This document shows, one piece after another, positions 7,519 to 46,554 of a stretch of DNA of 64,000 bases. The DNA comes from Candidatus Thorarchaeota archaeon (GTDB lineage: Archaea; Asgardarchaeota; Thorarchaeia; Thorarchaeales; Thorarchaeaceae): the NCBI GenBank assembly GCA_046482545.1, contig JAWOEX010000028.1, forward strand, positions 192,001-256,000, given 5' to 3'. Position numbers and translations under genes: made by a program. Each line of letters begins with the position of its first letter. Position 1 is the first letter of the stretch. The notes beneath the pieces are model-generated. The model did not search any database. It was given only the letters and a program-made list of their open reading frames with translations, and had not been told where the DNA came from.

Positions 7519-7674
7519 TTCTCGTACTCCGAGAGAGTAAAAGCTCCTTCATTTCTTTGATTCAGTAATTGCTCAGTTCTGTAAGGGCATCGGCACTCAA
7601 TTCGAATCTGACCAGTGTGTTTTTCTATACGAACGTACACTATAGACCCGCAATTAGACTGGAGTGGAGACATA

Positions 7675-21006: not shown

Positions 21007-21605
21007 AATGGTACCTCCAAAATCTGTATGTGAACGAAAAGCAGAATGATAATCGCAATGACCAGTTCAAGGGCACCACTCCGCGGCCTCTTCCTCAGTG
21101 ATGCCCCGATAAGTGAAATATCGCCACTCCTGATTGATGCGTTGAAAAGCACACCAAGGGCGACATACAGGCCGATGACAGGCCATATGAGGTCAGCCGC
21201 AAATGCCATAGGGAGTATCATCAGATTCATCGCGCTGAATACAGACAACACTACAATGGCATAGATCGCGGCGATGACAACTCCAACCCGTGGTGGGCGT
21301 TCAACATTCAGGTACAGGTTGACTTCGCCGTACGTTGTTGAAGTACCGACGCTCTCAATTCTGAAGCCGAAGACACTGCAGACCAAGTACCGAATCCCTA
21401 CATATACAAGAGAACCCGGGAGGAAAATGATAGAAAGAATAGATAGTACAGGATTCCTAGTCCATTCCTCAAACTCGCGTTTTCTCCCCGCAAGGAGTAT
21501 AGCACTTCGAATCACTGTCATTGCAATAAGCACGATTGGCGTGAAAGTCAGTGCTAGTATGAGATTTGTAACCACCAATCCGGCTAGATCATTCCAGTTA
21601 AGCAT
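21003..21605 (-). CDS. Multi-pass membrane protein resembling an M50B/DUF3267-type zinc metallopeptidase lacking HExxH
   Basis: IFLPGSLVYVGIRYLVCSVFG matches the lPGxxxHExxHxlxcxxxG pattern with the His/Glu replaced; SGD in the last helix; 4-nt overlap with the giant protein start. Confidence 0.55.
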   Translation of the reverse strand: MLNWNDLAGLVVTNLILALTFTPIVLIAMTVIRSAILLAGRKREFEEWTRNPVLSILSIIFLPGSLVYVGIRYLVCSVFGFRIESVGTSTTYGEVNLYLNVERPPRVGVVIAAIYAIVVLSVFSAMNLMILPMAFAADLIWPVIGLYVALGVLFNASIRSGDISLIGASLRKRPRSGALELVIAIIILLFVHIQILEVPF

Positions 21606-21725
21606 GATTCTACCTCGTTGATATGATTCAACGAGTTATAGTATGACAATCACTAGCCTGAATGTTTGCATTAGTATGAGTAGGAAAGCATAGGCCTTTA
21701 TACGTCTATATATGGCTCCATACGT

Positions 21726-21820
21726 GCTCCACCATATTTAGATTAGCTAAAAATGTTTTTTTGTGTCTTTACAGGTTTATGTGGCCCCAGATTGGAATCG
21801 CTTTGCCGATTTTTCCCGGT
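21726..21820 (-). promoter_or_regulatory. Bipartite conserved promoter-like element, copy 1
   Basis: Plus strand GCTCCACCATATT (21726-21738) + 61 nt + GCTTTGCCGATTTTTCCCGGT (21800-21820); upstream of the 21605 gene. Confidence 0.75.
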
Positions 21821-22363
21821 TTTTGATACAAAATCAGTCAATTGCTCAGTCATTTTGCGCGAAGAATTCCAGATCATTCTGGTTCCATGGATTCGGTGTA
21901 CATTTTGCAACGAACGGAACGCCGCCTTGGTCCATCCACTAATGTCGAGCGAAGTGGGTTTTGCAATTCCTTGTATCAGTTTAGAAAATGACTGTGAATC
22001 TGTTTCTTCAACAAGTCTGCCCAAAAAGCTGACCAAAACCCGAAGACGATTGCTGTCGCAGTTGATTCCCATAGCAAGAAGAGCTTCTTTTGCAGAGCTA
22101 GTTCCTAAATGAGCAAGTGCACGCACTACCACAAACCAAGAGTCGAAATCCCTCCGACGAGCGAGTGAATTGCAGATTTCAATCACGGCTGAGTCTCGCC
22201 TGTGGGCTAGCTCCTGAATGGCCGGTTCCCGCAAGAATAGACTCAGTTCTGTGTTCTTACTTCTATTTACCAGCTTTTCTCTAGAGACATCAGAAAAATC
22301 ATAGACTTGTTCAGAACTCAAAGCGGAACCAGTATCAACCAAGAACAGGTAGTTGGCGTTCAT
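21743..22363 (-). CDS. Hypothetical protein with short HEAT-like helical repeats
   Basis: VVRALAHLGTSSAKEALL and LVSFLGRL are HEAT-like; the C-terminal tail runs through element copy 1. Confidence 0.55.
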   Translation of the reverse strand: MNANYLFLVDTGSALSSEQVYDFSDVSREKLVNRSKNTELSLFLREPAIQELAHRRDSAVIEICNSLARRRDFDSWFVVVRALAHLGTSSAKEALLAMGINCDSNRLRVLVSFLGRLVEETDSQSFSKLIQGIAKPTSLDISGWTKAAFRSLQNVHRIHGTRMIWNSSRKMTEQLTDFVSKTGKNRQSDSNLGPHKPVKTQKNIFS

Positions 22364-22421
22364 ATAGGTAGGTCTGGATGGCCATTATTAAGGGACACAT
22401 GTGATACGAATTCACAAAGAA

Positions 22422-23393
22422 TCAGCATGTCTCTTCGAGTGTCGTCTGTTCTTGACCGTAGGTTTTCCAAGCCCGAGTGAGAGCCTTAATAGTCCTCTTA
22501 ACCGTTTCTCTCTTTTCAAGTGGAAGAAAATGCCGTTTCAGTTGATTCGGATTCGGGGGTCTCAGTGTGAGGTCAAACATGAATGAATCTATTCTGTCTG
22601 CTTCATAGAAAGTATCTCTCGCCAAGATAAATTCTTTAATCTGTGAGTGAGGAATACCGTTGGCGCGGAGTACATCTTCCAAGCTTCCGTATCGCTTCAA
22701 TTGTGTGGCACCCCTTCGAGGGCCTACATTTCGAAGTCCTTCATGAAAATCACAACCACACAGGATAGCCAAATCTCTCAAGCCCACCAAGTCCAAATCA
22801 AGCTCTTGTTTCAAATCGGATAATCTGGCAGAGGTAATCTTTCCTTTGGAAAAGCTGATGCCCTTGGTAAGATGTGGGGATCCAAAAAGAAGTGTGTCTA
22901 CATCATTGGATAACACAGACCCGGTTCGTCTAGCCCTTGCCAGTGCAGCTGCGGTCATCTCCGCTTCAGAGGATGCAGTAATGGTCGGAACTCCAGATGC
23001 CGCCAACAAATCCTTCAGATGAAAAGACATGAAATACATCGACAAGCTAGGACTTCCGGCAAGAGAAGACGAAATATGATGGTCGAAAGGATCTCTCTTC
23101 TCTAGAAAACGATTGTATAACCGGCGTGCGGAACGCAGAAGGTTGGGATTAGGTGCCCGCTTTAGGGATTCTGGAGGGCCATCAAAGATGAATACTGGTA
23201 GGATGTTATGTTGGAGTAAACCCTCAACCAGCTTGAGGGCAATAGACACGTATGGCATAGGCTTTCTTCCTGTCCCGCCCCGGGCGGCCAAGCGACGCAC
23301 AAAGTAATTTGGAACATCGATTGCTAGGGCTGAGGGCTCAATTTTAATGGCACTTGCAGTGTAGTGAACGAAATCCCAGCCAACTACTCCCAA
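22422..23393 (-). CDS. FEN1/XPG-family 5'-flap endonuclease (divergent paralogue)
   Basis: TTG start at 23393 gives the MGV N-terminus typical of FEN1. Motifs IDVPNY, FIFDG, SEAE, SNDVDTLLFG, ILCGCDF, VGPRRG (H3TH) and a C-terminal QTTL. Confidence 0.85.
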   Translation of the reverse strand: MGVVGWDFVHYTASAIKIEPSALAIDVPNYFVRRLAARGGTGRKPMPYVSIALKLVEGLLQHNILPVFIFDGPPESLKRAPNPNLLRSARRLYNRFLEKRDPFDHHISSSLAGSPSLSMYFMSFHLKDLLAASGVPTITASSEAEMTAAALARARRTGSVLSNDVDTLLFGSPHLTKGISFSKGKITSARLSDLKQELDLDLVGLRDLAILCGCDFHEGLRNVGPRRGATQLKRYGSLEDVLRANGIPHSQIKEFILARDTFYEADRIDSFMFDLTLRPPNPNQLKRHFLPLEKRETVKRTIKALTRAWKTYGQEQTTLEETC

Positions 23394-24100
23394 GAATGAA
23401 ATCCCCCGTATATTGATTCTAATCCACACGGGCTCAAATAAACAACTACCGCTCGTTCGTTTTTGATAAGTGGTGAGAATTGCACCAAGATACGTATTGC
23501 AGAATCAGACACATCTAATTTCTCTATCCGAATCACGGAGTCTACTGCGTGAGCAAGTACATTACCTCCAACAGGTTTCCTTGCACCTTTTGATGAATAC
23601 GCTGTCATCATGAGATGCAGCCCGTGATTGTTGACCTGAGCACGGAGTTTTTCCAAAGAGCTGTAAAGCTTCCGCTGAGTCTTCTTGGTCATGGGCTTTC
23701 CGCTCAGATTCATCACTCCTGTAAGGCTATCAACAATCACAACACGGAAACCATGGGTTCCAGCATGTTCAACCGCTGCTTCCAAATCAGTAAGGGAAAA
23801 AACATTGCCAATTTGAATGTGTTCAAGGGGCCTGTCTGCTTCCATAGTCTCTCCAAACTTCCGCATGAGATTAGGTGAAAATCCAGATCCAGAATCCAAG
23901 TAAAGGGAACGATTATTTGCAACAACCCCTCCAAGAGCAGCGATGTGAGCCATCTCTGTGAGAAGCCCTCGTTCAGGGCCATGAAAAATGCTAATCTGGC
24001 GGTCAACAAACACTGGTCCCACTGTTGAGTCTAGTTGCTCAGGCTTGAGTTCGACCAGCCTATGAAAATCCATGTTAAACTCACTCAGCTGTTTGGCCAT
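23384..24100 (-). CDS. RecA/RadB-like paralogue with degenerate Walker A
   Basis: HGPERGLLT replaces GxxGxGKT; LYLDS, VVIVDSLT and KPVGGNVLAHAVD are RadA-family motifs. Confidence 0.75.
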   Translation of the reverse strand: MAKQLSEFNMDFHRLVELKPEQLDSTVGPVFVDRQISIFHGPERGLLTEMAHIAALGGVVANNRSLYLDSGSGFSPNLMRKFGETMEADRPLEHIQIGNVFSLTDLEAAVEHAGTHGFRVVIVDSLTGVMNLSGKPMTKKTQRKLYSSLEKLRAQVNNHGLHLMMTAYSSKGARKPVGGNVLAHAVDSVIRIEKLDVSDSAIRILVQFSPLIKNERAVVVYLSPCGLESIYGGFHSWE

Positions 24101-25034
24101 CCGCGGTCACGCTCCGAATTATGACTGATACATCCTTTTCAAAAAGTAAAGTCTCTTCTGTGCCTGGTGGCAGGGATTCAAGGTCCATTCCCGGAACCTC
24201 GTTTTCCCGTACTATGACCCTTGGCCCATCCGAAGACGGTAAGATGGTCGTTCTTACCGGCGGGTCTGCCAGGATGCGTGAAAGAGTCGTGTGGTTTGTA
24301 GCGATACGAAAATCCTTTGGATCGATACCCGCAAGGCTTTCAAGGTAAGGCAGAGAGCCAATGAAGTGGCTGACTTCGGGGGATAGCTCAGTGAAATGGT
24401 CAACACCATAACTCCTAACGAGATTTTTGATTCGATTCGGCCAGCCTGCATCGTTTTCGCAGTTCACAATAATTGCGTCTGCCTCCTCGAATCGGACCAA
24501 ACAAACCGGCAATAGTGGTCGTTCCTCGATTAGAGTAATCATCGTCTGGAAATACCTGTGAGAAAGAAGAAACACCTGCCATACGCTACCGGACCTTACA
24601 GAATGATTATCCTCAATTCTTACCATAGTGTTGAGGACAGTACTGAATCCCCTTGACAATACTTTGGCACTTCTCTTTTGACGATGGGGATTTCGCACAG
24701 TGGTACATCCAATCAGGAAGAAGATAACTCCGAGTATAGAAACTAATCCATCAAAAATAAGCAAAGTAAAGCCGATTGCTAAAGCTGAATAGCCAGCCGC
24801 AAATCCGGCTACTGCAGTCACAACAGAACTCACTTTAGATTCAGATACGAAACGATGGTCAAGAACAAGTAATCCAAAGGCAAGGAGTACAAGGAAAAGG
24901 AGAGGAATGACATTCCCAGTTCTTGCGCTGAGTACTATAACGGTGAGAGATGCCAGCAATTTAGTGCCGAATAAAACAGCAACCATTATCACAATCAGCA
25001 GAATTCCTGCATTGCCTATCCACTTACCAATCAT
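24081..25034 (-). CDS. Membrane protein (4 N-terminal TMs plus soluble domain), unknown function
   Basis: Four hydrophobic segments within aa ~8-112; overlaps both neighbours. Confidence 0.75.
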   Translation of the reverse strand: MIGKWIGNAGILLIVIMVAVLFGTKLLASLTVIVLSARTGNVIPLLFLVLLAFGLLVLDHRFVSESKVSSVVTAVAGFAAGYSALAIGFTLLIFDGLVSILGVIFFLIGCTTVRNPHRQKRSAKVLSRGFSTVLNTMVRIEDNHSVRSGSVWQVFLLSHRYFQTMITLIEERPLLPVCLVRFEEADAIIVNCENDAGWPNRIKNLVRSYGVDHFTELSPEVSHFIGSLPYLESLAGIDPKDFRIATNHTTLSRILADPPVRTTILPSSDGPRVIVRENEVPGMDLESLPPGTEETLLFEKDVSVIIRSVTADGQTAE

Positions 25035-25660
25035 TGTGTTCCTCCCCCAAGGGCCAATGCAACTGATCCTTCATCTTCAAGCCGAATTTCAATCAAAGGA
25101 GTAGATTCTACTTCAGCAATTGATATGCCGGATTTTATGGTTCGAGCAATCTTGATTTCGTAATCAGCGAATCTATTCATTGCTTCCTCATACACAGCCC
25201 TTTTCGAACCACCGACTTCTCTACACTCGCTGATACAGAGAATCGTCAAATCGTGTTTCATTGACATAGCTGTTAGACTCGGTAACACCTCTTCGAAGAG
25301 TACTCTTCCCCACATAGGGTCTTTTCGAAGTCCCATATCCAAGACACGAGTAATCGAATCAATGACAATAAGGGTTGTATCTTCAGTGAGAAATGTGGGG
25401 ATATCTTCGATAATCTCTACCGTCATTTTATGGCCCATAGCACTAAGGACCCTAACTGATTCAGGCCTTCCGTTTGTCCGGGATATGGTCTGCTTCAAAG
25501 GCTCGATGAAAGCCATCTTACCATTTGTGTTAATCCACAATACATCAGAGTCCATAGCCACCTCCGAAGCATAAGCTATGGCAAAGAGAGTCTTTCCCGT
25601 TGCAGGAGCTCCGGAAACATGGACTAGTCCCTTTAGTCCAAAGTCGCAAGGCTTGTTCAT
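25031..25660 (-). CDS. RadB-like RecA-family ATPase
   Basis: Walker A GAPATGKT, VLWINT, Walker B LIVIDS; no N-terminal HhH domain. Confidence 0.8.
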   Translation of the reverse strand: MNKPCDFGLKGLVHVSGAPATGKTLFAIAYASEVAMDSDVLWINTNGKMAFIEPLKQTISRTNGRPESVRVLSAMGHKMTVEIIEDIPTFLTEDTTLIVIDSITRVLDMGLRKDPMWGRVLFEEVLPSLTAMSMKHDLTILCISECREVGGSKRAVYEEAMNRFADYEIKIARTIKSGISIAEVESTPLIEIRLEDEGSVALALGGGTQ

Positions 25661-27186
25661 AAGGAGTCTTCCTCATCCTCTGATGGTTTGCTTTCTAGTG
25701 GAGACCCCTTTAGTTTTGAATCAGCAATCTGGCGTCCTGTAAGCTCCAATTCATCTTTGCTGGAGTCAGTATTTCCCTCTACTTCATCCCCGCTTTCGGA
25801 AATACCGGCTGAGCCTATTCGTTGGTATAATCCATCATTACACTTGTCCGGTTCAGGTATTTCGTCGGGTATTTCAGATTCTATTTCTTGCTTCAGAAAT
25901 GCTGCAGTGCCAAGCAGGTTTATGGAATCATATATCCTCTGCAAGAGATTATTGTCGATGAGGCCGGCTCGTGAGACGGCTCTGTATAGAGTTCCAATAT
26001 AATCAATCAGGGAGTCTCGATCTTCTGAAGGGTATGCACCAAGACCGGCATAAGAAATTGCTAATTCATCGAAATCACTCTCTGAAAGCCCGGCCTCAAG
26101 TTCCTCGAATAGGCCTAGGAAGGTGGCTAGACCATCATCAGGTATCGATGCGCGCTTGGTTGACGAGTTTTTCGCGCACTTCTCAATTATGATACTACTG
26201 GCCTCAGCGGCCTCCTCAATTTTCGCATTTTCTATTGCATCAACTACTCTGGATACGAGTGGAGATATTACGAAATTGATGTCCTCGATTTTCTTGAAGA
26301 TATCTGCCTTCTTGCACAGTTGCTGTTGTGTGAGGGCGCGATCTCCAATTTCAGCCAGCTTGCCTTCTTCTTCAGCCAGCTTATCCTTGAAACAGAAAAT
26401 ATTCTTTCTTGCCTTAAGACCAGTCCACATTGCAAAACCAACAGAAAAGGCAGCCAGTACCACGGAAATAATCCATCCGATTCCTCCAACAAGAGAGCTG
26501 TACACCGCGCTTACTACGCCTACAAGACCAACTAGGATCGCCAAGAAAGCAAACCACCCATTTGTAATTCCCTTTTCCAGAGACTCCCATTTCTCCGGTA
26601 TCATCGCAGCCCTAATATCAGGTGCTGTTCCCATCGCATCTGATCTTCGAGACAGACTGAAGTCTTGAAGATTCAACACCCTTTTTGGTTCACAGAACCA
26701 AGAGTAGGAGTTCTTGTCTACTGTCTCCGAAGTAACGACATAGTTCATTCTCGACTGTCTAACCAAGCTATGCTTCTCGGGTGATGAAGAAGACTGCAGC
26801 ACATCGAATTCGATTTTTCCGAAAGGAGTCATGATGCACTTCGATTCTAGTTTTTCGTCGAGTTCAAGGTCCTCAAATACTTCATTCAGTTCTCTGTCCG
26901 CTGCTTTTAGAACGGTTTTCTGCATACCCATCTTTGGAAGGTCACAGGAATTGAGATCCAAGATATTTGTCAAAGAAACATGTACACTTCTTGTATTGGG
27001 TATCCTATCAAAGCGTACTCCAACAACAAGTCCTTTTTCAGGATAGGCCTTTGCCACATGCTCGTTTTCTCTCAGAAGATCGAGTATGCTTTCTATCTGC
27101 GATTCTTTCTTGTCTTCCTCTTTCTCAGTTATAGTATCCCCTTTTCGAGATGGCTGTGTTGATCTTTGATCACTACTTGCTGACAT
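25657..27186 (-). CDS. Two-TM membrane protein with large soluble domains and an acidic tail
   Basis: TM hairpin GWFAFLAILVGLVGVVSAV / WIISVVLAAFSVGFAMW; likely start MSASS at 27186 (track 27201). Confidence 0.75.
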   Translation of the reverse strand: MSASSDQRSTQPSRKGDTITEKEEDKKESQIESILDLLRENEHVAKAYPEKGLVVGVRFDRIPNTRSVHVSLTNILDLNSCDLPKMGMQKTVLKAADRELNEVFEDLELDEKLESKCIMTPFGKIEFDVLQSSSSPEKHSLVRQSRMNYVVTSETVDKNSYSWFCEPKRVLNLQDFSLSRRSDAMGTAPDIRAAMIPEKWESLEKGITNGWFAFLAILVGLVGVVSAVYSSLVGGIGWIISVVLAAFSVGFAMWTGLKARKNIFCFKDKLAEEEGKLAEIGDRALTQQQLCKKADIFKKIEDINFVISPLVSRVVDAIENAKIEEAAEASSIIIEKCAKNSSTKRASIPDDGLATFLGLFEELEAGLSESDFDELAISYAGLGAYPSEDRDSLIDYIGTLYRAVSRAGLIDNNLLQRIYDSINLLGTAAFLKQEIESEIPDEIPEPDKCNDGLYQRIGSAGISESGDEVEGNTDSSKDELELTGRQIADSKLKGSPLESKPSEDEEDSL

Positions 27187-29356
27187 CTTTATCACCTGCA
27201 TTGTATCGATTTGAATGCAACTCGTTGAGCAATCTATGAACTCCCCTTCCTACTTTATCCAAGTTGGAAACCTCTGCAATGCTGGAGATTGAGATAAGAA
27301 TCCACTCCAGCATATCAAGGATTAATCTGATGTCACCTGTACCCAGATTATTTCTAGTGGCTATAGTCTCACAGTTCTCAGAAGCCAGAATGAGTTCAGC
27401 AACAATCTGTGCCGTTGACTCACCAAGGTTTCTGCCACTTTCCAGCATGATGATATGCGCGATTAAATCAAGCAATTCCCTTGAAGTATCTACCATTGGA
27501 AGGAGGGCCAAGATTTCTCTGACTGTTGATATATGGAGATAGAGCTTGCAAACAACGCTGCCGAGAGCTGTGAGTCTCAGCCGGGCATCAGAGCCACCTT
27601 CAATCAAACCGAGCTTGGTCAGAGTTGCTACTGGGCTTGTTTCTCCTAATGCTAGGGGAATTATGAAATCGGCTTTGGACCGCAATGATTTCGCTGCTTC
27701 GATTCCCAGAGCAACAAGATGGGGGCAGAGGATGCCATCTTGCCCAATGGCTTTGCCGCACGAACACGACGGGCCTTCAAGAACACCGCTCTTCCGTGAT
27801 CTGATGGAGAACCGACATGTGTACCCTCCTCCGCTCCGTGGTTTAACCAGACCCCCTATCGTCTCCTCCGATTTCTCGCGGATATCAACGTGAGCAAGGA
27901 CCCCTTCCATTGCGGCGTGGAGGGTTTCAGACAGCGCATGTTGTTCAATCGACGCCTGTGCGGTGAGATCGGCTAGAATCAGCGGTCTAACTGGTGAACG
28001 TGGATTCCTTACGTGATTATGTACGAGATATGATTGGGCAAAATATACGTCTTCAAGGTCTAAAACCGTAGAGCCATCAAGAAAATCGATTGCCACTAGA
28101 ACCTGCTCTGTAAGATTGCTTGAAAGACTGCTTCGCACAGAACTGAATCTAGGCATCATTTCGTCCTCGCCTTCAGAAGCATCAATACACTGGAAGTACG
28201 CGTCTAAAGCTGTTTTTCGCTCTCCCTCACTTCGAGTAATGATGATTCCAAAGCCTTCCTTGTCGAACCCTGGCCTTCCTGCTCTTCCCAACATCTGGTG
28301 AACTTCATTAGCTGAAAGAATCTGTTTGTAATCAGCAGGAGAGACGATGGATGAAAGAACCACTGTACGTGCAGGAAGGTTCATTCCCGAAGCAAGAGTT
28401 GTCGTAGCTGAAATCGCTTTCAGGAATCCTTTCTTGAAGAGCCGTTCAACAAGACTCCGAGATTGAAAGTCTAACCCGGCATGATGATATGCTACACCTT
28501 GATGGACGAGAGGAACTAATTCACTTGGTAGGGACGCATTCCAGTTCTCAACCGAATCGAGCTCGGTGTCAAGATTATCTTTCTCCACATGACGCAGCTG
28601 TCTGACCACGTGTGGTGCCAGTCTCTTAGCTGATGCCACTGCTTCTCGCCTTGTTCTGCTGAATACCACAACCTGGCCGTTCCTTTGTACGCTTCGCATA
28701 ACAATATCCCGAACCGTCTTCTCTGGCTCATTGGTCTTCAGAACTCTCGTTACCAACGGAACTGGTCGATGACTAGATTGTAGAAGTTTGGAATCCAACC
28801 ATTCTGCCAGTATTTTTGGCTGACCAATTGTAGCACTGAGAACGACGAACTGAACTTCAGGGAATGCTTTTCGTAACCGCATCAGAGTTCCTTCAAGCCT
28901 GCCTCCTCGCATTGGGTCTGAAATGTTCTGGATTTCATCCACGATTACAGTGCCTATATCTGAAAGCCAGTCAGCCCTGTGGCGTAGTAGCGAATCAGTC
29001 CTCTCATAGGTTGAGACGAGTACATCGCAAGTTGCGAACTTGCTTCCGCTGGCTTCAAGATCCGAAGTACTTACTTCCACATTCAAACCACGATGAGAAT
29101 ATCGTTCCCTGATGGTTGATCCAATTTGAATAGCCAGCGATTTCAGTGGAACCATGAAGACAGCCTTTCGTCCATTTGAGACCGCCCTCAGAGCGGCCAT
29201 CTCACCAATGAGGGTCTTCCCAGAACCCGTGGGACTACATATCATCATGTTAGCCCCGTCGAGCAATCCCTCATCTATGGCCTTTTGTTGCAGTTTCCTA
29301 GGTTCTAATCCTGCCTCGCGAATCCAATCCAAAACCGATTGCTGGACTAAGGTCAT
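27173..29356 (-). CDS. Ski2-like/Hel308-family SF2 helicase with an inserted SWIM zinc finger
   Basis: SPTGSGKT, TYER, DEIQ, LSAT, HHAGL, TTTLASGMNLPAR, QMLGRAGRPGFD; SWIM CSC-x10-CPH. Confidence 0.85.
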   Translation of the reverse strand: MTLVQQSVLDWIREAGLEPRKLQQKAIDEGLLDGANMMICSPTGSGKTLIGEMAALRAVSNGRKAVFMVPLKSLAIQIGSTIRERYSHRGLNVEVSTSDLEASGSKFATCDVLVSTYERTDSLLRHRADWLSDIGTVIVDEIQNISDPMRGGRLEGTLMRLRKAFPEVQFVVLSATIGQPKILAEWLDSKLLQSSHRPVPLVTRVLKTNEPEKTVRDIVMRSVQRNGQVVVFSRTRREAVASAKRLAPHVVRQLRHVEKDNLDTELDSVENWNASLPSELVPLVHQGVAYHHAGLDFQSRSLVERLFKKGFLKAISATTTLASGMNLPARTVVLSSIVSPADYKQILSANEVHQMLGRAGRPGFDKEGFGIIITRSEGERKTALDAYFQCIDASEGEDEMMPRFSSVRSSLSSNLTEQVLVAIDFLDGSTVLDLEDVYFAQSYLVHNHVRNPRSPVRPLILADLTAQASIEQHALSETLHAAMEGVLAHVDIREKSEETIGGLVKPRSGGGYTCRFSIRSRKSGVLEGPSCSCGKAIGQDGILCPHLVALGIEAAKSLRSKADFIIPLALGETSPVATLTKLGLIEGGSDARLRLTALGSVVCKLYLHISTVREILALLPMVDTSRELLDLIAHIIMLESGRNLGESTAQIVAELILASENCETIATRNNLGTGDIRLILDMLEWILISISSIAEVSNLDKVGRGVHRLLNELHSNRYNAGDKDVSK

Positions 29357-31629
29357 TGCGCTGCTGCCGCCTCCTCAAACTGCCTGAGCGCCATTCGGCC
29401 TTTCAGCGTCAAGCGATAGTTTCCGTAATCTACCCCACTGTGGGTTTCATGCCCCTTCAGTATGAGGCTCGCTCTCTCCAATCGGAAAAGAATTTGTGTC
29501 ATGTCAGCTGTTGATAGGCCCTCTCGGGTAAGGAAACTCTGAAGTGCTTTTTCAGTCAGCGGAGAATACCTATTAAGAAGCTCAAGAATTCGTAGTGCTA
29601 TTTCCTTATTGTCTCTACAAGCATGGGCCAAAAGGCTGCTTGCTTTCGGTTCTGGTTTCTCGTAACTCTGCAGAGTCTTTAGTCTACTACGAATGTCGTT
29701 CTCCGTAAGATCCTGTAAAACAGGAGCATCACACAATCTTATCGGATAAGATAGCTCTTCTGCTCTATGCGAAAGGATAGCCATATCCGACCCAAGTGTT
29801 CGGATAAAGGAGGTTTCTCTACTGGATCTGCGGGATTTACTGTGAATGCCGTGTCCAACAACGGTTAGCTTGAGTATATCATTGGCAACAGCAATGTCAC
29901 GCGAATCTCTGAGACGTAAACAGATTGAGCTTCCAAGCTGGTTCAGTACTTCATTGTCCAGACTTGAGGGGTTCTCTACTGAAATGATTAGACTACCACG
30001 TCTAAGAAGATCTCCTACGATGTCACGTGCCCATTCCGAGTTATCAGGATAGCGATTCCCACTCGCTAAAAGGTTAGCAGGTGTGTCTAGTATAACGACG
30101 AATTCTCTGCTGGGTCCAAGCGCGCTGAGTTTGATTAATGACAAATCCCAAGCGAAGATATCAAGCTCAGGGCTCCCCAGTTCGATATGAGCTACTGTCA
30201 GTGTATTCTTCGCAAGCGAATTCATTGGTACAGTCTGTTGGCCATAGAAGGCTCGTGCCCCAACACCATCGCGCAGAAGGCGTATAACTTCTATACCGCG
30301 CAAGGAATCTCTTGAGGGATCGGTGGAATACTTCTGTGAAGAAGCCCCTTCTTCCGCTACAACTGGAGTATCATCTGTCAGAGAAACGTCAGCCAGAGTA
30401 GCATTGGGCACGGACACTGCTCGCTGTAATGCTAGCTCAAAGTCAGTAGCAGCACCAAACGGACGACCGTTCAGAATTTCGAGTGCTTTTTTCAGCTTTG
30501 AGACATATCGCAAGGAGTTCATACCATCGGCAGCAACAGGGTTTAGAATCAAATCATCTGCAAGCTGAAGAGGAATGGCCGAGTCATGAAGGCTGGCTAG
30601 TCTCATGGCATTTTCATTTGCACTAAGGACTATCACATGCTTACCTGATTCCAGAATTGAATGGATTAGATTCGCGAGAATTGGAATTCTTTCATTTCTA
30701 TGCCCTCCACAGATGAGAAGGCCATCCTCGAGGTCCTCTTGGGCTAAACCCACTGATGGACCCTCCAACATTGTTTCAGGATTGATGCTTCGTCCAACTT
30801 CGAAGTCGTACTGCTGACCGCGTATCGGGCTGACAAATTCTCCAGGAATCGTTGCGCCCACTTCTGATGCTAGTTCACTCTTCAGCTGTATTAGCCACTT
30901 GGTCAATTCACTACCTAGAGCGTAGAAACAAGGGTCCCGATTAGCGAAAGAACGATTCAAAATTAAAGCTGTGAGTTGTTGAACTGATAGTCGTTCCCAT
31001 CCTTTGCTTGGTAGCGCCCCCCGAATGCCACTTTCAAAAGCACCTTGCCCTTTTTGATTTCGCAAGTGGGCAGCAATAGAGACAGAAACTTTCCAGAAAC
31101 CAGCTTGATTGAGTAGGAAAGATTCCAATCCTTCCTCGCTTATTGAATCAACTAACCATCGGGAGGTGTCATCTAGCAAATCTTGGCTGTAAAGGATAGA
31201 GGAATCACTTTTCTTAAGAGAAATTATGAGACAAAAACCTAAGCCTATGGGAAGAGCCCGTATTAGTCGTCCAAGATCCCCCAAGAACTCAGCTGGCGCA
31301 TCTTCTAGGGATAACGCCATCATGTACTGGCCGTTTTTGGTTTCTATCAGTTCTCTGTCGGAGCCACTGATAGAACCGATTCCATTATCCTGCTGCCATT
31401 CTGGTACGAGTTGTTCAGAAGACCGGGAAGTCAGAGAGGGCGCTCCTATCAACAATAGTAGGACTGCAACGCTGAGGATACCAACTACTTTAGGAATGTA
31501 AAAAACAGCCCAAAAGGCAAGGGCTGAAACGAGCAGAGAGGAAAGCCAAGACGAGGCTAACTCCCGAGTCCTCCACCGAGGCTTTGTACTCTTCGATACT
31601 GACCAACGAGATTCCTTCATTTCGTCCAT
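29353..31629 (-). CDS. Membrane-anchored HerA/VirB4(CedB)-like protein with degenerate ATPase motifs and a C-terminal wHTH
   Basis: Two N-terminal TMs. LICGGHRNERI at the Walker A position and VVILDTP at Walker B. RRGSLIISVENPSSLDNEVLNQLGSSICLRL matches the HerA/FtsK-clade Q-P-S motif region. C-terminal wHTH (...LFRLERASLI...YRLTLKG). Confidence 0.65.
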   Translation of the reverse strand: MDEMKESRWSVSKSTKPRWRTRELASSWLSSLLVSALAFWAVFYIPKVVGILSVAVLLLLIGAPSLTSRSSEQLVPEWQQDNGIGSISGSDRELIETKNGQYMMALSLEDAPAEFLGDLGRLIRALPIGLGFCLIISLKKSDSSILYSQDLLDDTSRWLVDSISEEGLESFLLNQAGFWKVSVSIAAHLRNQKGQGAFESGIRGALPSKGWERLSVQQLTALILNRSFANRDPCFYALGSELTKWLIQLKSELASEVGATIPGEFVSPIRGQQYDFEVGRSINPETMLEGPSVGLAQEDLEDGLLICGGHRNERIPILANLIHSILESGKHVIVLSANENAMRLASLHDSAIPLQLADDLILNPVAADGMNSLRYVSKLKKALEILNGRPFGAATDFELALQRAVSVPNATLADVSLTDDTPVVAEEGASSQKYSTDPSRDSLRGIEVIRLLRDGVGARAFYGQQTVPMNSLAKNTLTVAHIELGSPELDIFAWDLSLIKLSALGPSREFVVILDTPANLLASGNRYPDNSEWARDIVGDLLRRGSLIISVENPSSLDNEVLNQLGSSICLRLRDSRDIAVANDILKLTVVGHGIHSKSRRSSRETSFIRTLGSDMAILSHRAEELSYPIRLCDAPVLQDLTENDIRSRLKTLQSYEKPEPKASSLLAHACRDNKEIALRILELLNRYSPLTEKALQSFLTREGLSTADMTQILFRLERASLILKGHETHSGVDYGNYRLTLKGRMALRQFEEAAAAQ

Positions 31630-31666
31630 AGGGTCTCGCTGGGGAATTGACCCGAAGATATGACGG

Positions 31667-31939
31667 TCAGTCAGGGGTCTCGCCTCCCGATTTCAATTCT
31701 TGCAGGGCTGTAAGCATCTGTTTGACTAGACTCGAAGATTCGTATGCAACGGCCAACTTTCTCCCGAGTACCAGTAATTCTGGAAGTCCCTCCTTCCGCG
31801 AAACACCCACCTCAGTCCGCCTTGGTGATTCAACCAAAAGGGTGAATTCGTAAGCATGACCACCACGTAGTGCTTTCTTGACCTCATCTACGGCAAGACC
31901 AAGCGGAATGGTGATGGAATCCATGTACTCGATCTTCAT
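31667..31939 (-). CDS. Small hypothetical protein (90 aa)
   Basis: Start overlaps the upstream stop (ATGA) inside the operon. Confidence 0.65.
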   Translation of the reverse strand: MKIEYMDSITIPLGLAVDEVKKALRGGHAYEFTLLVESPRRTEVGVSRKEGLPELLVLGRKLAVAYESSSLVKQMLTALQELKSGGETPD

Positions 31940-40187: not shown

Positions 40188-41579
40188 TTGACCAGTGCAA
40201 GCTATGAACGACACATCTTCAGTACACTCAGTATGTACCCCAGTTCTTCCACCGTTTACTTAATAGGGAGAGAGAGCATGCATACTCTCGAGCCGAAAAT
40301 GGAACCCGTTGGAATTCTAATACTTGCCATCTTCATTTTCACAATGATTATAATTCTTTCAGAGAAAATAAACGAAACTGCCACGGCTCTGTTTGCCATG
40401 TGCGTGTCAGTGGGTCTTCTTATTGTAACCAATAGAATGGACTTTGAGACCTTCATTCTCCTCATTGAATGGGACACGATACTCTTCGTCACTGCGATGA
40501 TGATCGTAGTTTCGGTTGGTGCCTCTTCGGGTGTGTTCCAGTATATTGCCTTACACCTTGCTCAAAGGACAGGCGGTGAACCAAAGAGTGTCTTCACATC
40601 GTTCATGGCCTTTGTATTTGTAATCTCTCTATTCTTCGACCCTCTCCCAACTATGCTAATCATGGGACCCCTCACTGTTGAAGTTTGCAGGGCGATAGAC
40701 ATGGATTACCGAGTCTTATTGATTTCACAGGTAATTATCTCGAACTTTGCATCCTTTCCATCTATCGTTGGTTCTGTATCTAATCTCGTCATTTCTAGCT
40801 GGGCTAATATAGAGGCAGGCTATCTCTTTTTGGGACTCCTTCCTCTTTCTCTTCTATTGTTCCCGATTACGATGGCAATTCTTTCCAAGTATTACTCTGT
40901 AGAGTTAGCTTACAAAGAGTTGGATACAGATAATCCGCTGATGATGATTGAACCCAGTATGATGATTAAGTCCCGTCGTGATTTCTATATGTCTTCAATA
41001 GGAATGGGAATACTCTTTGTCGGCCTAGTAATTGGTCCCCAGATGCGGCTAGAGGCAGCCTTTCTTGCCCTGACTATTGCATCTGCCATGCTCATGTTCT
41101 CTGAAGATAGAGTGACAAGGTTTCTCAGAGAGCTCTCATGGGACACAATATTTTTTCTTATTGGCCTCTTTGGAATAATTGCAGCCATGGAGGTAACCGG
41201 TCTAATTGATGACATGGTGCTTGGTTTGCAGAATATCGTTGCAGGAAACCCCTTCGCGGCCATCTTGTTTATGCTATGGGTGCCGGGTCTGATTCTCGCA
41301 CCAATTGACAATATCCCCGTAGCAGCACTCTTGTCTCCTTTGGCTGTAGAATTCGGGGGGGCCCACGGTTCAATACCACTCTCCCTTATTATCGGAACAA
41401 ACATAGGTGGTTACATCATCCCCTTGGGCGATGCCCCTAACATGATAGCACTAACCTTAGCGGCTGACGCCGGAAAAAATATAGACCGTTGGGAGTTCAC
41501 TAAAATTGCCTTCGCTGTGGGACTTCTTCACCTTTTCATTTCTACAGCATACTGCTTTCTGCTCGTTTGGCTGATATGA
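40188..41579 (+). CDS. ArsB/NhaD/SLC13-superfamily anion permease
   Basis: About 11-12 TMs; IEWDTILF, IDNIP, TNIGG...GDAPN; true start probably further downstream (MHTLEPKMEP). Confidence 0.8.
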   Translation: MTSASYERHIFSTLSMYPSSSTVYLIGRESMHTLEPKMEPVGILILAIFIFTMIIILSEKINETATALFAMCVSVGLLIVTNRMDFETFILLIEWDTILFVTAMMIVVSVGASSGVFQYIALHLAQRTGGEPKSVFTSFMAFVFVISLFFDPLPTMLIMGPLTVEVCRAIDMDYRVLLISQVIISNFASFPSIVGSVSNLVISSWANIEAGYLFLGLLPLSLLLFPITMAILSKYYSVELAYKELDTDNPLMMIEPSMMIKSRRDFYMSSIGMGILFVGLVIGPQMRLEAAFLALTIASAMLMFSEDRVTRFLRELSWDTIFFLIGLFGIIAAMEVTGLIDDMVLGLQNIVAGNPFAAILFMLWVPGLILAPIDNIPVAALLSPLAVEFGGAHGSIPLSLIIGTNIGGYIIPLGDAPNMIALTLAADAGKNIDRWEFTKIAFAVGLLHLFISTAYCFLLVWLI

Positions 41580-41747
41580 GAGAGACACAGCCCGAACAGC
41601 GGCACCGGTCTTTCGGAACGTCAGTGTTCGAATATATCGTCAATCATATCGCCTCACAGGGAGAGAGCACATCCGTGTCAGTAGCCAGGGGTGCTGGTTT
41701 GGCTTGTAAGTGACATTTCCTCACCCATCTTTCAAAGGCAAAAGTAT

Positions 41748-42061
41748 TCATCCTGTACAAGACAGTTGCGCCGAGTGCACTATCTCTCTAACAACACGAA
41801 ATTCCTTGTTGCTCTGCGTTATCACATCCTCGTAGGCCGACACGAACTCCACCGCATCAACCTCCTCTTGCTGGAACATCGCTGCAATGGCGGAATGACG
41901 AGACTAACCACGCTGTAATCAAGCACCTCGTAGCCGGGGCGTTCCGAAGCCCGGTACATAGCGTTTGGGACGTAGGCTTCGCTGATCTCGATAGGATTCC
42001 CAAGTACGTCATCGACGCTCTTCTGTTTTAGTTTCACGTAGAACGAAACGAGCGGCCTCAT
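41748..42061 (-). CDS. Small hypothetical protein, possibly frameshifted
   Basis: ORF 41822..42061. An alternative frame from 41903 (SRHSAIAAMFQQEEVDAVEFVSAYEDVITQ...CTG*, stop 41748) looks more protein-like than the annotated tail. Confidence 0.4.
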
Positions 42062-42207
42062 AACCGATGTCTGTCTTTATCTTGAGACAGCCTGAGACCA
42101 AGGTCCTAGATTATCAGAATGGTAGTCGGAATAGTATATATAAACCATCGGTCCAGACCACTTACGGGGAATGAGGGTTTAGAAAGCGATTAAGAACTCT
42201 GATAACC

Positions 42208-42302
42208 GCTCCACCATATTCATTTTATTTTAAAATTCTTAGATAACGATATAGAAGGCCCATATTGTTCATCTCCGATGTGCTTTGCCGATTTTTCCCG
42301 GT
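42208..42302 (-). promoter_or_regulatory. Bipartite conserved promoter-like element, copy 3
   Basis: GCTCCACCATATT (42208-42220) + 61 nt + GCTTTGCCGATTTTTCCCGGT (42282-42302). Confidence 0.75.
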
Positions 42303-42653: not shown

Positions 42654-44240
42654 GTGGTGCGCGTAGTAACTCTGGATTGGTTAAGCAATCTAGAACTAAC
42701 TGAGCCGGAGCCATATTGGTTCAGAGATGAAAGGCTCTACGCTGGCATCAACTCTGCTCGTTTCGAAGACAATCTTAATTGGGCCGAATTCGAAAAATAC
42801 ATGGGTCTCCAACCTGCTCCAGATGAGTCGTCGAATGATGTAGTGGCGCGAAATACATCTGAATCACAGCAAGGCGTGTTAAGACTTCACAGCTCTGAAC
42901 AGTTGAATCTATCAATTGATAAAAGCGAACTGAGATACCTAATTCGTCGTCTACGGCATTTCATCCATGAAAAATCCCCGCAACAGTATCTTAATGAAGC
43001 ACCCGGGCTAGATATTCTCAGTAGGGGAATCATTGCACTACACGAGTATGCGAAGTTTTGCGGACAGAGTTTGAACTGGCAAGCTGCTCTTGAGAACGTG
43101 GCGACCCTCGACAAGTTAGCAGAGCTAGATTATACTGGATTTGCGCGAACAGACTGGTCTAGGTGTGATTTGTTACCGGACGCTGTAGCCGAGTATCGGA
43201 GCAAGCCGCTATTACACGAGCTAAGGCATTCCTTCATTTCACTTCAACATCCTGTGCTAACAAAAATATGTGAGGCCCTTTGGAGAAATGAAGAATACAT
43301 AGGCATAACAAACAACTTCGTGAGAGAAGAGACAGGATGTACTAAACGAGAGGCTAGCCGCTACTCAGAAGAGCTTTCTATGCTTATGACCGAGAGATGC
43401 ATACCTGAAATCGCCACCTTAGGCCTGAGATACAGATCTATTCTAACAGCTAACCTCAGGCCAAGAATTTGGAACGGCGGTCTTGTACGAGCCTATGAAG
43501 TGGCGAATTCAAATTATCCTGGCTTCTTTCTCTACGTTGAACCTCGAGACAGCAATGGGCCTAGGAAAGGTGTTCTCCAAGAAAATGCCTTCCATTTCAC
43601 TGCGACTCGTGGAGTGCTGTCCTTCCGGCTTGACATGTGGGACGGAAAGAATTGGGTTTTTGAGCCATGGAAACCAAAAAATCAAGCTATCGATGGTCGA
43701 AAAGAAAGGTGGCTGTTGAAGGAGTTCAATACAAAAGAGGAAAATAATGCGCTAACTCCCCGGGAAGCAGTGCTCTTAGGTATTTTGTGGTCTCATCGAG
43801 GTGATGAGTCTTCAAGAAGAGACCTGTTAGAACGTTTGGAGTTTCCTGTTCGTTCCGCAAGACACTATCGAGAAAAGCTGGAGAAGAAGGGTGCATTCCA
43901 GATTTGTCAGCATCCCAAGCTGTGCTTTAGTGGGTTAAGTGATGGCATCCTTCTCGCTGTGACAGGATATGACGATATAGAGGATTTGCGTGATTACATC
44001 CTTTCACTTGCCCCTTATTGCGTAATCTACTTCAACAAGCAAGAGGATTCTCTTTGGGCTCTAATGAGGGTACCCCGCTGGCGTTCTGATCTCTTACGAG
44101 AACTGATGATAGAATGCATTGGCAAAGACACTCCTCAGTACCAAGTTGGTAGGATTCTAGAAGAAAACCGATACGCCATGACCCTTACCAGCAGACTCCA
44201 TGACGACAGTAGTGGTTCCTTTGCCAATCCCTGGACTTGA
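42654..44240 (+). CDS. Putative transcription regulator with two wHTH + Lrp/AsnC(RAM)-like modules
   Basis: HTH-like VREETGCTKREASRYSEEL followed by PEIATLGL; second module LTPREAVLLGIL...LEFPVRSARHYREKLEKKG followed by PKLCFSGL. Confidence 0.55.
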   Translation: MVRVVTLDWLSNLELTEPEPYWFRDERLYAGINSARFEDNLNWAEFEKYMGLQPAPDESSNDVVARNTSESQQGVLRLHSSEQLNLSIDKSELRYLIRRLRHFIHEKSPQQYLNEAPGLDILSRGIIALHEYAKFCGQSLNWQAALENVATLDKLAELDYTGFARTDWSRCDLLPDAVAEYRSKPLLHELRHSFISLQHPVLTKICEALWRNEEYIGITNNFVREETGCTKREASRYSEELSMLMTERCIPEIATLGLRYRSILTANLRPRIWNGGLVRAYEVANSNYPGFFLYVEPRDSNGPRKGVLQENAFHFTATRGVLSFRLDMWDGKNWVFEPWKPKNQAIDGRKERWLLKEFNTKEENNALTPREAVLLGILWSHRGDESSRRDLLERLEFPVRSARHYREKLEKKGAFQICQHPKLCFSGLSDGILLAVTGYDDIEDLRDYILSLAPYCVIYFNKQEDSLWALMRVPRWRSDLLRELMIECIGKDTPQYQVGRILEENRYAMTLTSRLHDDSSGSFANPWT

Positions 44241-44634: not shown

Positions 44635-46554
44635 CTACAATCTTTGTTGTGTAAGAAGCTCCGAAGTATCGGTATCCCAATTTCCATCATCTTTCAGTAA
44701 TCTACGAAAGAAATCTGATCGATATGCTCTGAATGCTGTTGCTGGCACCATGCTTATTTGTGCATCAATACTCGAAATCGATTCTGAAATCTTTTCTCTG
44801 TTTTCGTGACTGATGCGTGCAAGAGCATAACCATGAGTTCTATTGCGCTCCAGAAACACCTGGCAGGTTGGCAGCGATTCCAGCAATGCCGCCAACAGAG
44901 AGCAGGTGGTCTTCTCATCGCCACGGAGTTCTAAGAATATGCTTTTGAGACCGATGATGCTCACTCTATAGCCAATGTCAATCGCTTCTTGGCTGCGAAG
45001 CGATTCAAGGCATTCCTTTATCGTTTCTTGGTTTATTTCTGTCCCTGGAATGCCTGCAGAAAGTTCCATCTCAGCAAGCCAGCCTCTTGATACAGCATAA
45101 TCAAGGATGTTAGCCTCGGTAGGACTAGGTGTTTTCATTACACCATTCATACTGTCTCCGAACCGAGCTCTCAAGTCATCCACGGAGGTCATTTCTCTAG
45201 ATTTGAATCTCTTCATATCTAGTTTCCAATGGTCTTGTTCCGGATCGTAAAGATGGTAATTCTGTTGCGATGCTGAATAGGCAATCATGCGGGTGCTCGG
45301 AATATGTCTCTTAACCTGTTGGGCTGCGATCGGCGGCATCACCATATGGTGAAAGTATAGCGGATGTTTATCGGTCCCGTCTATTCGAACTATGAACCGA
45401 AGATACTTGTGCGGCCAACGATATGCTCTCCCCAAGTAGACAATTTCCTGTAATCCGAAAGCAGCGGTCCTGACATGCGGCCATAGCCTGAGTCCCCTTG
45501 TCAATGACATCATCCGTTGGAGCCAGGACTTCCATGAATGTCGTGCTTTTGTACGACTGATAGGAAGAGAGGTTATGATTTCTTTTGTTTTGTTGAGTTT
45601 CTTAGCTATGGTAATCACATTTTCAGGTTGGTCATACGTCCTTCGCACATAGGATAGAAACCTAGTCCATGGTTGTTCCTCAACTTCTTCAGGTGGATTA
45701 GAGCCAAGAAGAGGTAATTGGCCAGCCTCAGCTTGCCACATGAATCGTACATACGGGAAATTCGGTATTTTAGAACCTAGGCGAAGATAGTAATTCTTGA
45801 GCAATGCAAGAAACAGGGGTTTGTCTTGAAATCGTGGGAAAAAATCAAGGGGATCCTCTGTGGGTCTGCCAAGACATGTATAAGCAAGAAAAGCCATGAG
45901 TTGCTCACGAATATCTTCTGGCCATTGAGGAGGAACAACTCCATTGAGACATTTCTTTAGTGTCTCCCCCACCAGGTTCACTCGCACACCATGCGTAATG
46001 CGCGCAAGACATTCCCAGTCCGGACGAGGATTATTGAGTATTGAAATCGGATTAATATCCGTTTCAATCCGTGACATTCCCTTCCGCCACAACGCAGCAT
46101 CGCTTTGATAGCGAAAAGGACCGGCCTCATAGTGCTCAATTGTATGAGCTTGGACTAGGTTCCCGTCTTGCACGACAGCAAGATAATACTTCTTTGAGCC
46201 CTCGATAGCATGCAGAAAGAAGGTAGCTGTATCATTACCGTACAGCCATCTGGGATACCATAGATTGGTATCCTCGGGATAAATCCTGGCTTCAATAGCC
46301 TCATTGAGGAGACGAGCAAATACGCCCTTGCGCGAAAGCACCGGTTCAAGGCGAATGAGAAATTCCTCGCCCTGCTGCACGACAGTATTACCTTCCTCGT
46401 CAAGAATCGCTTCTTTGGCCAGCTTGACCCGAGCACCTGAACAAATCTCCTCACCTGAATTCAACTGAACGAATGGTCCGTTTACTTTCCAAGAGATCTT
46501 CGCCTGGTGCCAATCATGGTCGAGTTGAATGAGGACATCCCAAGACTCTACCAC
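44635..46554 (-). CDS. Large hypothetical protein with C-terminal wHTH + Lrp/AsnC-like modules, related to 42654..44240
   Basis: PHVRTAAFGL; PSPTEANILDY...INQETIKECLESLRSQEAIDIGYRVSIIGL...LPTCQVF...GYALARI...RRLLKDDGNW parallels the C-terminal module of the 528-aa protein. Confidence 0.55.
   Translation of the reverse strand: MVESWDVLIQLDHDWHQAKISWKVNGPFVQLNSGEEICSGARVKLAKEAILDEEGNTVVQQGEEFLIRLEPVLSRKGVFARLLNEAIEARIYPEDTNLWYPRWLYGNDTATFFLHAIEGSKKYYLAVVQDGNLVQAHTIEHYEAGPFRYQSDAALWRKGMSRIETDINPISILNNPRPDWECLARITHGVRVNLVGETLKKCLNGVVPPQWPEDIREQLMAFLAYTCLGRPTEDPLDFFPRFQDKPLFLALLKNYYLRLGSKIPNFPYVRFMWQAEAGQLPLLGSNPPEEVEEQPWTRFLSYVRRTYDQPENVITIAKKLNKTKEIITSLPISRTKARHSWKSWLQRMMSLTRGLRLWPHVRTAAFGLQEIVYLGRAYRWPHKYLRFIVRIDGTDKHPLYFHHMVMPPIAAQQVKRHIPSTRMIAYSASQQNYHLYDPEQDHWKLDMKRFKSREMTSVDDLRARFGDSMNGVMKTPSPTEANILDYAVSRGWLAEMELSAGIPGTEINQETIKECLESLRSQEAIDIGYRVSIIGLKSIFLELRGDEKTTCSLLAALLESLPTCQVFLERNRTHGYALARISHENREKISESISSIDAQISMVPATAFRAYRSDFFRRLLKDDGNWDTDTSELLTQQRL

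Follow-up and report, generated by a model that had tools for sequence, protein, structure and literature searches.

The window analyzed here is a 64,000-nt stretch of a Candidatus Thorarchaeota archaeon (contig JAWOEX010000028.1, positions 192,001 to 256,000 of the forward strand, assembly GCA_046482545.1), whose genome (G000) comprises 3.05 Mb and is 98.9% complete. It carries three minus-strand copies of a bipartite element, in which a 21-nt box A and a 13-nt box B are held apart by exactly 61 nt (N61). In copy 1, box A occupies 21800..21820 and box B 21726..21738; the corresponding positions are 37902..37922 and 37828..37840 in copy 2, and 42282..42302 and 42208..42220 in copy 3. As the original prediction, made from the sequence by itself, had stated, both boxes are exact in all three copies and the base following GAGC is A, A, and G, respectively. 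The distal site of copy 1 lies inside the 3' end of a 206-amino acid (aa) open reading frame (ORF), the final 26 codons of which overlap box A and the spacer, while box A of copy 3 stands head-to-head with the gene for a 528-aa regulator. Box A has only the symmetry CCG-N8-CGG, and box B has none.

A genome-wide search brought the total to six copies, all N61 and none unpaired: the three in the window, one on contig C18, and two on contig C31, the three additional copies having at most one mismatch in box A. When the genome was scanned with a weight matrix, box A scored 33-35 bits in these six copies vs 19.3 bits for the next match, and no match outside the six had a partner box. The window contains no further box A at five or fewer mismatches, and no match to the element was found in viral contigs. 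Two exact box A matches in metagenome contigs were set aside as chance, because both box B and the cluster genes are lacking there. The element is well beyond chance. Its spacers, predicted to be largely divergent, do differ in sequence; however, they are gap-free, decayed homologs, ~48% identical between paralogs, and weak similarity between copies runs on for ~70 nt beyond box B. Spacer conservation shows no 10.5-bp periodicity. The motif ATTTTWA, which had been noted 9 nt before box B, is present in all three window copies but in only four of the six genome copies, and its exact form occurs in none of the six copies from the same-genus genomes G001 and G002.

Each window copy heads a minus-strand unit, as originally proposed, although the third of these units had been misjudged. 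Copy 2 heads a 15-gene operon (21743..37725) whose gene order is kept across the family and whose first gene likely starts at 37725. The operon encodes a RadA paralog, a Zn/winged helix-turn-helix protein, XPD-like and Hel308-like helicases, a FEN1/XPG nuclease, a HerA-like protein with degenerate Walker motifs, two RadB/KaiC-like proteins, and membrane and unknown proteins; no solved relative of the first protein was found, and an operon marker was found only within the order. Copy 1 heads genes for a 200-aa membrane protein and a 2597-aa Ig/MG/alpha-alpha-toroid surface protein (13213..21605), the adhesin pair of the earlier account. The "small gene" after copy 3 (41647..42076) is an internally deleted remnant of a GH3 acyl-amido-synthetase gene, which is intact at this place in G001 and G002 and of which G000 has an intact copy, with its own element, on C31. 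A candidate "ornate noncoding RNA" after copy 3 is this same remnant and folds no better than shuffled sequences (z 0.64). The C31 unit (L023:8589-13205) consists of the element, the second GH3 gene, a 103-aa gene, a divergent TBP gene, and genes for a 284-aa helical protein, a 117-aa protein, and a RadA paralog; its TBP is 45% identical to the housekeeping TBP, and its RadA, the third paralog, is 41% identical to that of the operon. DNA and RNA sequencing runs were examined as assembled contigs, which drop rare variants. The RNA contigs of run X9, which show neither starts nor expression level, contain scattered operon parts at depth 2-6 and also an unrelated transporter gene.

Comparison within the genus reveals concerted change of the boxes. 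In G001 and G002, the element occupies the three corresponding places and retains N61, but its boxes are altered. Box identity is 98-100% among G000 paralogs vs 78% (box A) and 88% (box B) between orthologs, whereas the relation is reversed for the spacer and leader, which are ~60% identical between orthologs vs ~48% between paralogs. Fixed differences at three columns (A12, A17, and B7) separate all six G000 copies from all six G001/G002 copies. Because recent duplication would have homogenized the spacer as well, the boxes appear to have changed together through selection or short-patch conversion, a pattern that fits co-evolution with a trans factor. Gap openings in the orthologous alignments number 0-2 per 170 nt inside the module, compared with 1-11 just upstream.

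Beyond the genus, the cluster keeps its gene order across the family, with GH3 usually divergent from the operon. In five other genera (g2, g4, g5, g8, and g9; g5 is represented by G021 and g8 by G009), the three units share boxes of lineage-specific sequence, and a blind search of the three upstream regions recovered shared, gap-free boxes in G003, G005/G020, G009, G010, and G021. These boxes begin 200-240 nt before the start codon (farther for the GH3 copy of G009) and always point into the gene, and the element flips with the GH3 unit where that unit is divergent from the operon. Both boxes are clear, with a span of ~95 nt, in G005/G020, G010, and G021; in G003 and G009, the second box is less pronounced. 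For g1, g2, g4, G021, and G010, three-way scores ranged over 102-211, compared with 41 as the highest value of the cross-genus null; G009 falls outside the three-way scoring window, and its boxes were seen by direct alignment. The number of copies per genome is exactly three for G010, G021, and G009, reaches at most four in g4 genomes, and is six for G003. Some of the additional copies in g4 and G003 belong to genes for VirB4/HerA-like ATPases or for N-terminal homologs of these; a 758-aa protein had no pairwise similarity to the g4 ATPase. Box B sequences are unrelated among genera, that of g4 being TATA-like (ATTCTAAA), and, owing to this turnover of the boxes, relatives yield no repeated copies when searched with the G000 box A pattern at three mismatches. 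The copies have a fixed spacing, are linked to gene orientation, number three to six sites per genome, and undergo concerted, lineage-specific box change. Their conserved placement, together with an element that follows gene direction across genera, supports the original view of a dedicated, orientation-linked promoter class defining a small regulon. We found no description of this cluster, regulon, or promoter class in Thorarchaeota in the open-access literature.

Several individual loci bear on how the copies evolve. On C4 of G010 (L240, L241), the GH3 and operon copies lie in inverted orientation 3.2 kb apart and are 94-100% identical over ~100 nt, which suggests recent gene conversion. Given this tract and the gene order of the present genus, occasional homologous exchange between copies over evolutionary time is likely. 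On C2 of G003 (L264, L265, L266), three distant copies share a variant box, GCCGGTTGCG, vs GCCGTTYGCG in the cluster. One copy of the G003-type variant is kept in G018 (L260), where no long ORF lies behind it and no cluster gene was found.

Could the copies instead be recently duplicated promoter fragments or relics of mobile promoters, alike only by descent and conversion and with no dedicated reader? Homologous spacers and leaders would follow naturally, as would the homogenized G010 pair and the C31a and C18 copies, which head no recognizable intact gene. Such an origin would, on the other hand, leave unexplained boxes that are 98-100% identical around a spacer at 48%, with only the boxes changing in concert, and the recurrence of the pattern in six genera, with unrelated sequences each time; the copies also showed no terminal inverted repeats. 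We therefore give this explanation very little weight.

To place the boxes relative to the core promoter, we used a matrix for the B recognition element (BRE) and TATA box trained on 1100 upstream regions of this genome; tRNA upstream regions, also tried for training, were too noisy. Averaged over six genera, the BRE-TATA score peaks at +159 to +161 from the box A start (p=0.0004, or p=0.016 without g2, whose anchor was set by hand), while the position of the TATA box assumed originally (+64 to +73, at ATTTTWA) scores negative across genera. Box B is therefore probably not the -13..-1 core element it had been taken for, since the TATA-like signal lies ~62 nt downstream of it, and initiation at 21725, 37827, and 42207, as first predicted, is unlikely. 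Both boxes are probably distal sites, at about -100 and -175. On the minus strand, copies 1 and 2 have predicted weak TATA-like sites at the cross-genus matrix peak, TTCAGGCT at 21655..21662 (putative start ~21630-21635) and TTGAGGCT at 37757..37764 (~37732-37737), and copy 3 has a canonical TATA, TTTATATA, at 42137..42144, 63 nt downstream of box B (~42112-42117). Starts ~90 nt after box B would leave 5' leaders of ~10-45 nt, typical for this genome, in which TATA-like words peak 45-60 nt before ATG. Under this geometry, the centers of box A, box B, and TATA would lie ~75 bp apart.

A specialized basal factor, a paralog of TFB or TBP, might instead read the same promoter class; box B would then be an initiator-proximal core element and ATTTTWA the TATA box. 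The occurrence of ATTTTWA in four of the six genome copies, the presence of four TFBs in the genome, the TATA-like box B of g4, and the divergent TBP gene within an element-headed unit all point in this direction. We nonetheless judge this reading improbable: scores at the ATTTTWA position are negative when genera are compared, the conserved cluster showed neither a TFB nor a TBP gene, and box B is unrelated between genera, unlike a basal-factor element. The extra TBP, moreover, was not found in G001 or G002, which retain the element, and for this reason a dedicated TBP was dropped as a general explanation. G000 has four TFB paralogs (C9:283338-285804, C26, and C34), two of them in tandem ~47 kb from the cluster, and several family genomes carry 2-4 TBP matches.

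The position of the TATA-like peak, downstream of both boxes, also bears on the idea that the element acts in RNA, as an antitermination signal or structured leader in transcripts that start upstream of box A and need it to complete units of 16 kb and 8 kb. The main targets are indeed very long units, and copy 1 lies inside the operon transcript; however, the short GH3 unit carries the element too, and consensus folding (alifold) of 11 copies yielded -0.4 kcal/mol for one strand and 0 for the other. A strict spacing that involves no base pairing would fit DNA phasing better, and an RNA-level role strikes us as highly unlikely. Nor did we find a conserved open frame in the element, since stops occur in 7-12 of 12 copies in every frame and codon periodicity is absent.

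Copies 1 and 2 flank the operon as direct repeats, which had raised a further possibility, that the copies are sites of site-specific recombination or programmed rearrangement by which the operon is excised or inverted. All three window copies are direct repeats, the gene order of this genus could be derived from the common order via exchange between element copies, the two G010 copies are 94% identical across the spacer, a sign of conversion, and C18 terminates 22 nt after a copy. Yet tyrosine (PF00589) and serine (PF00239) recombinases were not found in the 98.9% complete genome, not even as a XerA-like PF00589 match or a resolvase, in a search whose controls were positive in 14 of 14 and 12 of 14 genomes. 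Contigs of three DNA runs, which would drop rare variants, contain no joint between copies 1 and 2; the one joint that does occur, at 21800, belongs to the flank of copy 3. The copies have in common no inverted half-sites around a short crossover spacer, in other genera they follow gene direction at 200-240 nt before start codons, and the breaks of G001 contigs at the element arise because the regulator gene is present as two alleles. These data lend no support to the recombination-site alternative, which we regard as a remote prospect.

The candidate readers of the element are encoded beside copy 3: the 528-aa protein (42654..44240, plus strand), tandem-Lrp-like with a helical domain followed by two helix-turn-helix (HTH)-RAM units, is the candidate DNA-binding subunit, and its 639-aa paralog with degenerate HTHs (44635..46554, minus strand) is the predicted heterodimer partner. 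The original nomination of these two proteins is supported by their linkage, their divergence, which is the fastest in the cluster, and their predicted complex. Of 23 high-quality family genomes, 22 have the 528-aa gene and 22 the 639-aa gene, usually within the cluster or next to it. A regulator profile matches all 26 sampled family genomes (two only at E ~1e-4 to 7e-4) and outside the family has only four weak matches in the phylum; a close homolog of the 639-aa protein carries the label Thorarchaeota. In each of the eight genomes for which both positions were measured, an element lies 27-380 nt from the 528-aa gene and head-to-head with it despite rearrangement, the element that faces it being that of the GH3 unit in this genus and that of the adhesin unit elsewhere. 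The two proteins have the lowest identity of all cluster proteins in 24 of 25 genome pairs; in an example pair within the genus, they are 59% and 47% identical, compared with 76-87% for other cluster proteins. Box change follows this divergence: at a 528-aa identity of at least 85% the boxes are essentially the same (G001/G002, G005/G020, and G008/G096), at 59% three box positions have changed, and at ~30% the boxes are unrelated. On C11 and C12 of G001 (L103, L104), two 528-aa regulator alleles with ~89.5% DNA identity join the same element and GH3 contig, with flanking DNA ~97% identical, possibly a balanced polymorphism.

The two proteins are homologous to each other (hhalign 98.7%), and AlphaFold2 models (per-residue confidence, pLDDT, 87) predict the helical domain and two HTH-RAM units. 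Foldseek matches include NirDL, LrpC, AsnC, and PH0061, and Atlas neighbors carry HTH_AsnC-type; at the sequence level, AsnC/Lrp Pfam models match none of 34 homologs at E<=0.01, and the best AsnC match of a profile against the PDB has an E of 0.15. The 528-aa family retains two basic recognition helices, whereas the HTHs of the 639-aa protein, the first one included, look degenerate. The predicted 528/639-aa complex scores 0.77 vs 0.01 for the best control. Among reference pairs, 58 of the 80 that are solved reached the mark for this score, compared with 2 of the 110 that are mismatched. Prediction runs agree in at least 74% of contacts, with a partner pLDDT of at least 79, and the 639-aa protein contributes its extra helical domain to the predicted interface; the score may have passed through likeness to solved Lrp-fold heteromers. 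Genomes of g3, g6, and g8 often have two or three 639-aa-type paralogs and boxes that are mostly weak or undetected. A relation between paralog number and box degeneracy, suggestive for g3 and g6, fails for g11-g13.

On balance, we consider it probable that the element is a private upstream control module, read by the linked tandem-Lrp pair and drifting together with it. The module would span ~170 bp, with box A, ~75 bp to box B, and ~75 bp to a mostly weak TATA, and would head every unit of this Thorarchaeota-specific cluster (recombination operon, adhesin pair, and GH3 enzyme) and, in some genera, also distant VirB4/HerA-like ATPase genes. The boxes would be protein-binding activator sites read by a heterodimer of two single-chain tandem-Lrp proteins, in which the 528-aa subunit, whose two basic HTHs are unlike each other, would recognize an asymmetric stretch of ~20 bp. 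When both boxes are occupied, the DNA may be bent or wrapped and TBP and TFB recruited to the weak TATA, and the intolerance of indels would thereby be accounted for. Drift would affect the regulator and its boxes jointly, aided by occasional gene conversion, and homologous exchange between copies may help new box variants to spread.

Several observations weigh against this interpretation. Strong boxes were not detected in g3, g11, g12, and g13, and g6, g7, and g10 show only a degenerate TTGCA-N4/5-GGAC-like motif, though both regulators are present there; the strict form of the element is therefore not universal. The region upstream of the 206-aa gene, considered as an alternative promoter in g3 and g6, has no clear boxes. 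The divergence of the regulators is confounded with phylogenetic distance, and their HTHs are only modestly more variable than the other domains (20-25% vs 27-33%). The predicted TATA of copies 1 and 2 is a poor match, the G001 copies have no peak at +159, and the four TFBs and two TBPs of this genome could also confer specificity. Finally, the best fold match for both proteins is an enzyme, the siroheme decarboxylase NirDL (PDB 4czc and 4ch7; E 8e-7 and 6e-5). The proteins resemble NirDL in having tandem HTH-RAM units in one chain, but identity is 12-14%, the 528-aa family keeps basic recognition helices and diverges far faster than the cluster enzymes, and there are no heme-biosynthesis genes among the annotated neighbors.

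By analogy, the element may work like an Lrp-type activator-dependent archaeal promoter. Ptr2 of Methanocaldococcus jannaschii activates via enhanced TBP recruitment to the TATA box (PMC11894787), and Sa-Lrp binds a bipartite site and shortens DNA by 115-156 bp, which was read as wrapping (PMC3584215). The system shares with these archaeal Lrp/AsnC activators (Ptr2, Ss-LrpB, and Sa-Lrp) the HTH and RAM fold and a divergent regulator gene beside the site. It differs in its putative readers, two large paralogs of 528 and 639 aa that each combine tandem Lrp units in a single chain with additional N-terminal domains and are predicted to form a heterodimer. Its sites differ as well: they are long and asymmetric, hardly vary within a genome, lie ~75 and ~150 bp from TATA, and change completely from one genus to another.

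The likeness to the TFB3/Orc1-2-controlled regulon of Sulfolobales that the original prediction had drawn is an analogy only, the gene content being loosely analogous to the Sulfolobus ultraviolet-inducible exchange regulon. In Sulfolobales, the ANTTTC hexamer, a non-palindromic motif immediately upstream of BRE/TATA, co-regulates cell-contact and DNA-transfer/repair genes that have weak core promoters; it lies at -44 to -39, is conserved between species, and precedes 214 genes (PMC5817253). The Thorarchaeote boxes, in contrast, are 13-21 nt long, unrelated in sequence, far upstream, lineage-specific, and present at 3-6 sites per genome, and so do not match that motif. Neither ups nor ced genes were identified, and no Ced family exceeded the cut-off; a distant g4 member has a weak CedD match (E 1.8e-4, far below the cut-off). 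Four two-repeat TFBs were found in the genome, in a search not aimed specifically at the truncated TFB3.

A programme in which cis sites and trans factors diverge while the programme is conserved is known from the pherotype-diversified ComQXPA and agr regulons and from the species-specific co-evolution of ribosomal DNA promoters with SL1. The Thorarchaeote system would show the same cis-trans divergence around a conserved programme, and it has no homology to these systems; here, the DNA sites turn over completely. It is conceivable, though rather unlikely as a whole, that the units form a mating-like cell-contact and DNA-exchange programme, with the heterodimer bound at phased sites 100 and 175 bp upstream, an acyl-amino-acid made by GH3 as its effector, and orthogonal lineage types. 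DNA exchange as the purpose is suggested by gene content only. A GH3 product acting on the tandem-Lrp activator would constitute an autoinduction loop; the signaling role of GH3 is speculation, because amino lipids are also among the products that bacterial GH3-like enzymes can make (PMC12493201). The element would link the adhesin with the recombination operon, the GH3 enzyme, and the VirB4/HerA-like ATPases in a single programme, a point relevant to whether, and by what means, relatives of the ancestor of eukaryotes exchange DNA. Because it provides defined sites, defined candidate factors, and six or more sequence variants that occur in nature, the element makes long-range phased activation testable in Asgard archaea.

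In G021 (L137:8730-9000), tandem coding repeats of a DKRFE-type coiled-coil unit lie near a lone box A look-alike with one mismatch and without box B. Elsewhere in the window, 7615-11037 encodes a protein of 1140 aa that has a TrmB-like HTH at its N terminus, contains long apolipoprotein-like repeats, and is 86% identical within the genus. Between copies 3 and 2 (38317-41579) lie a Yip1-domain gene, a RadB-like gene, and, on the opposite strand, a citrate-transporter gene; the RadB-like gene is 88% identical and similarly placed in G001 and G002.

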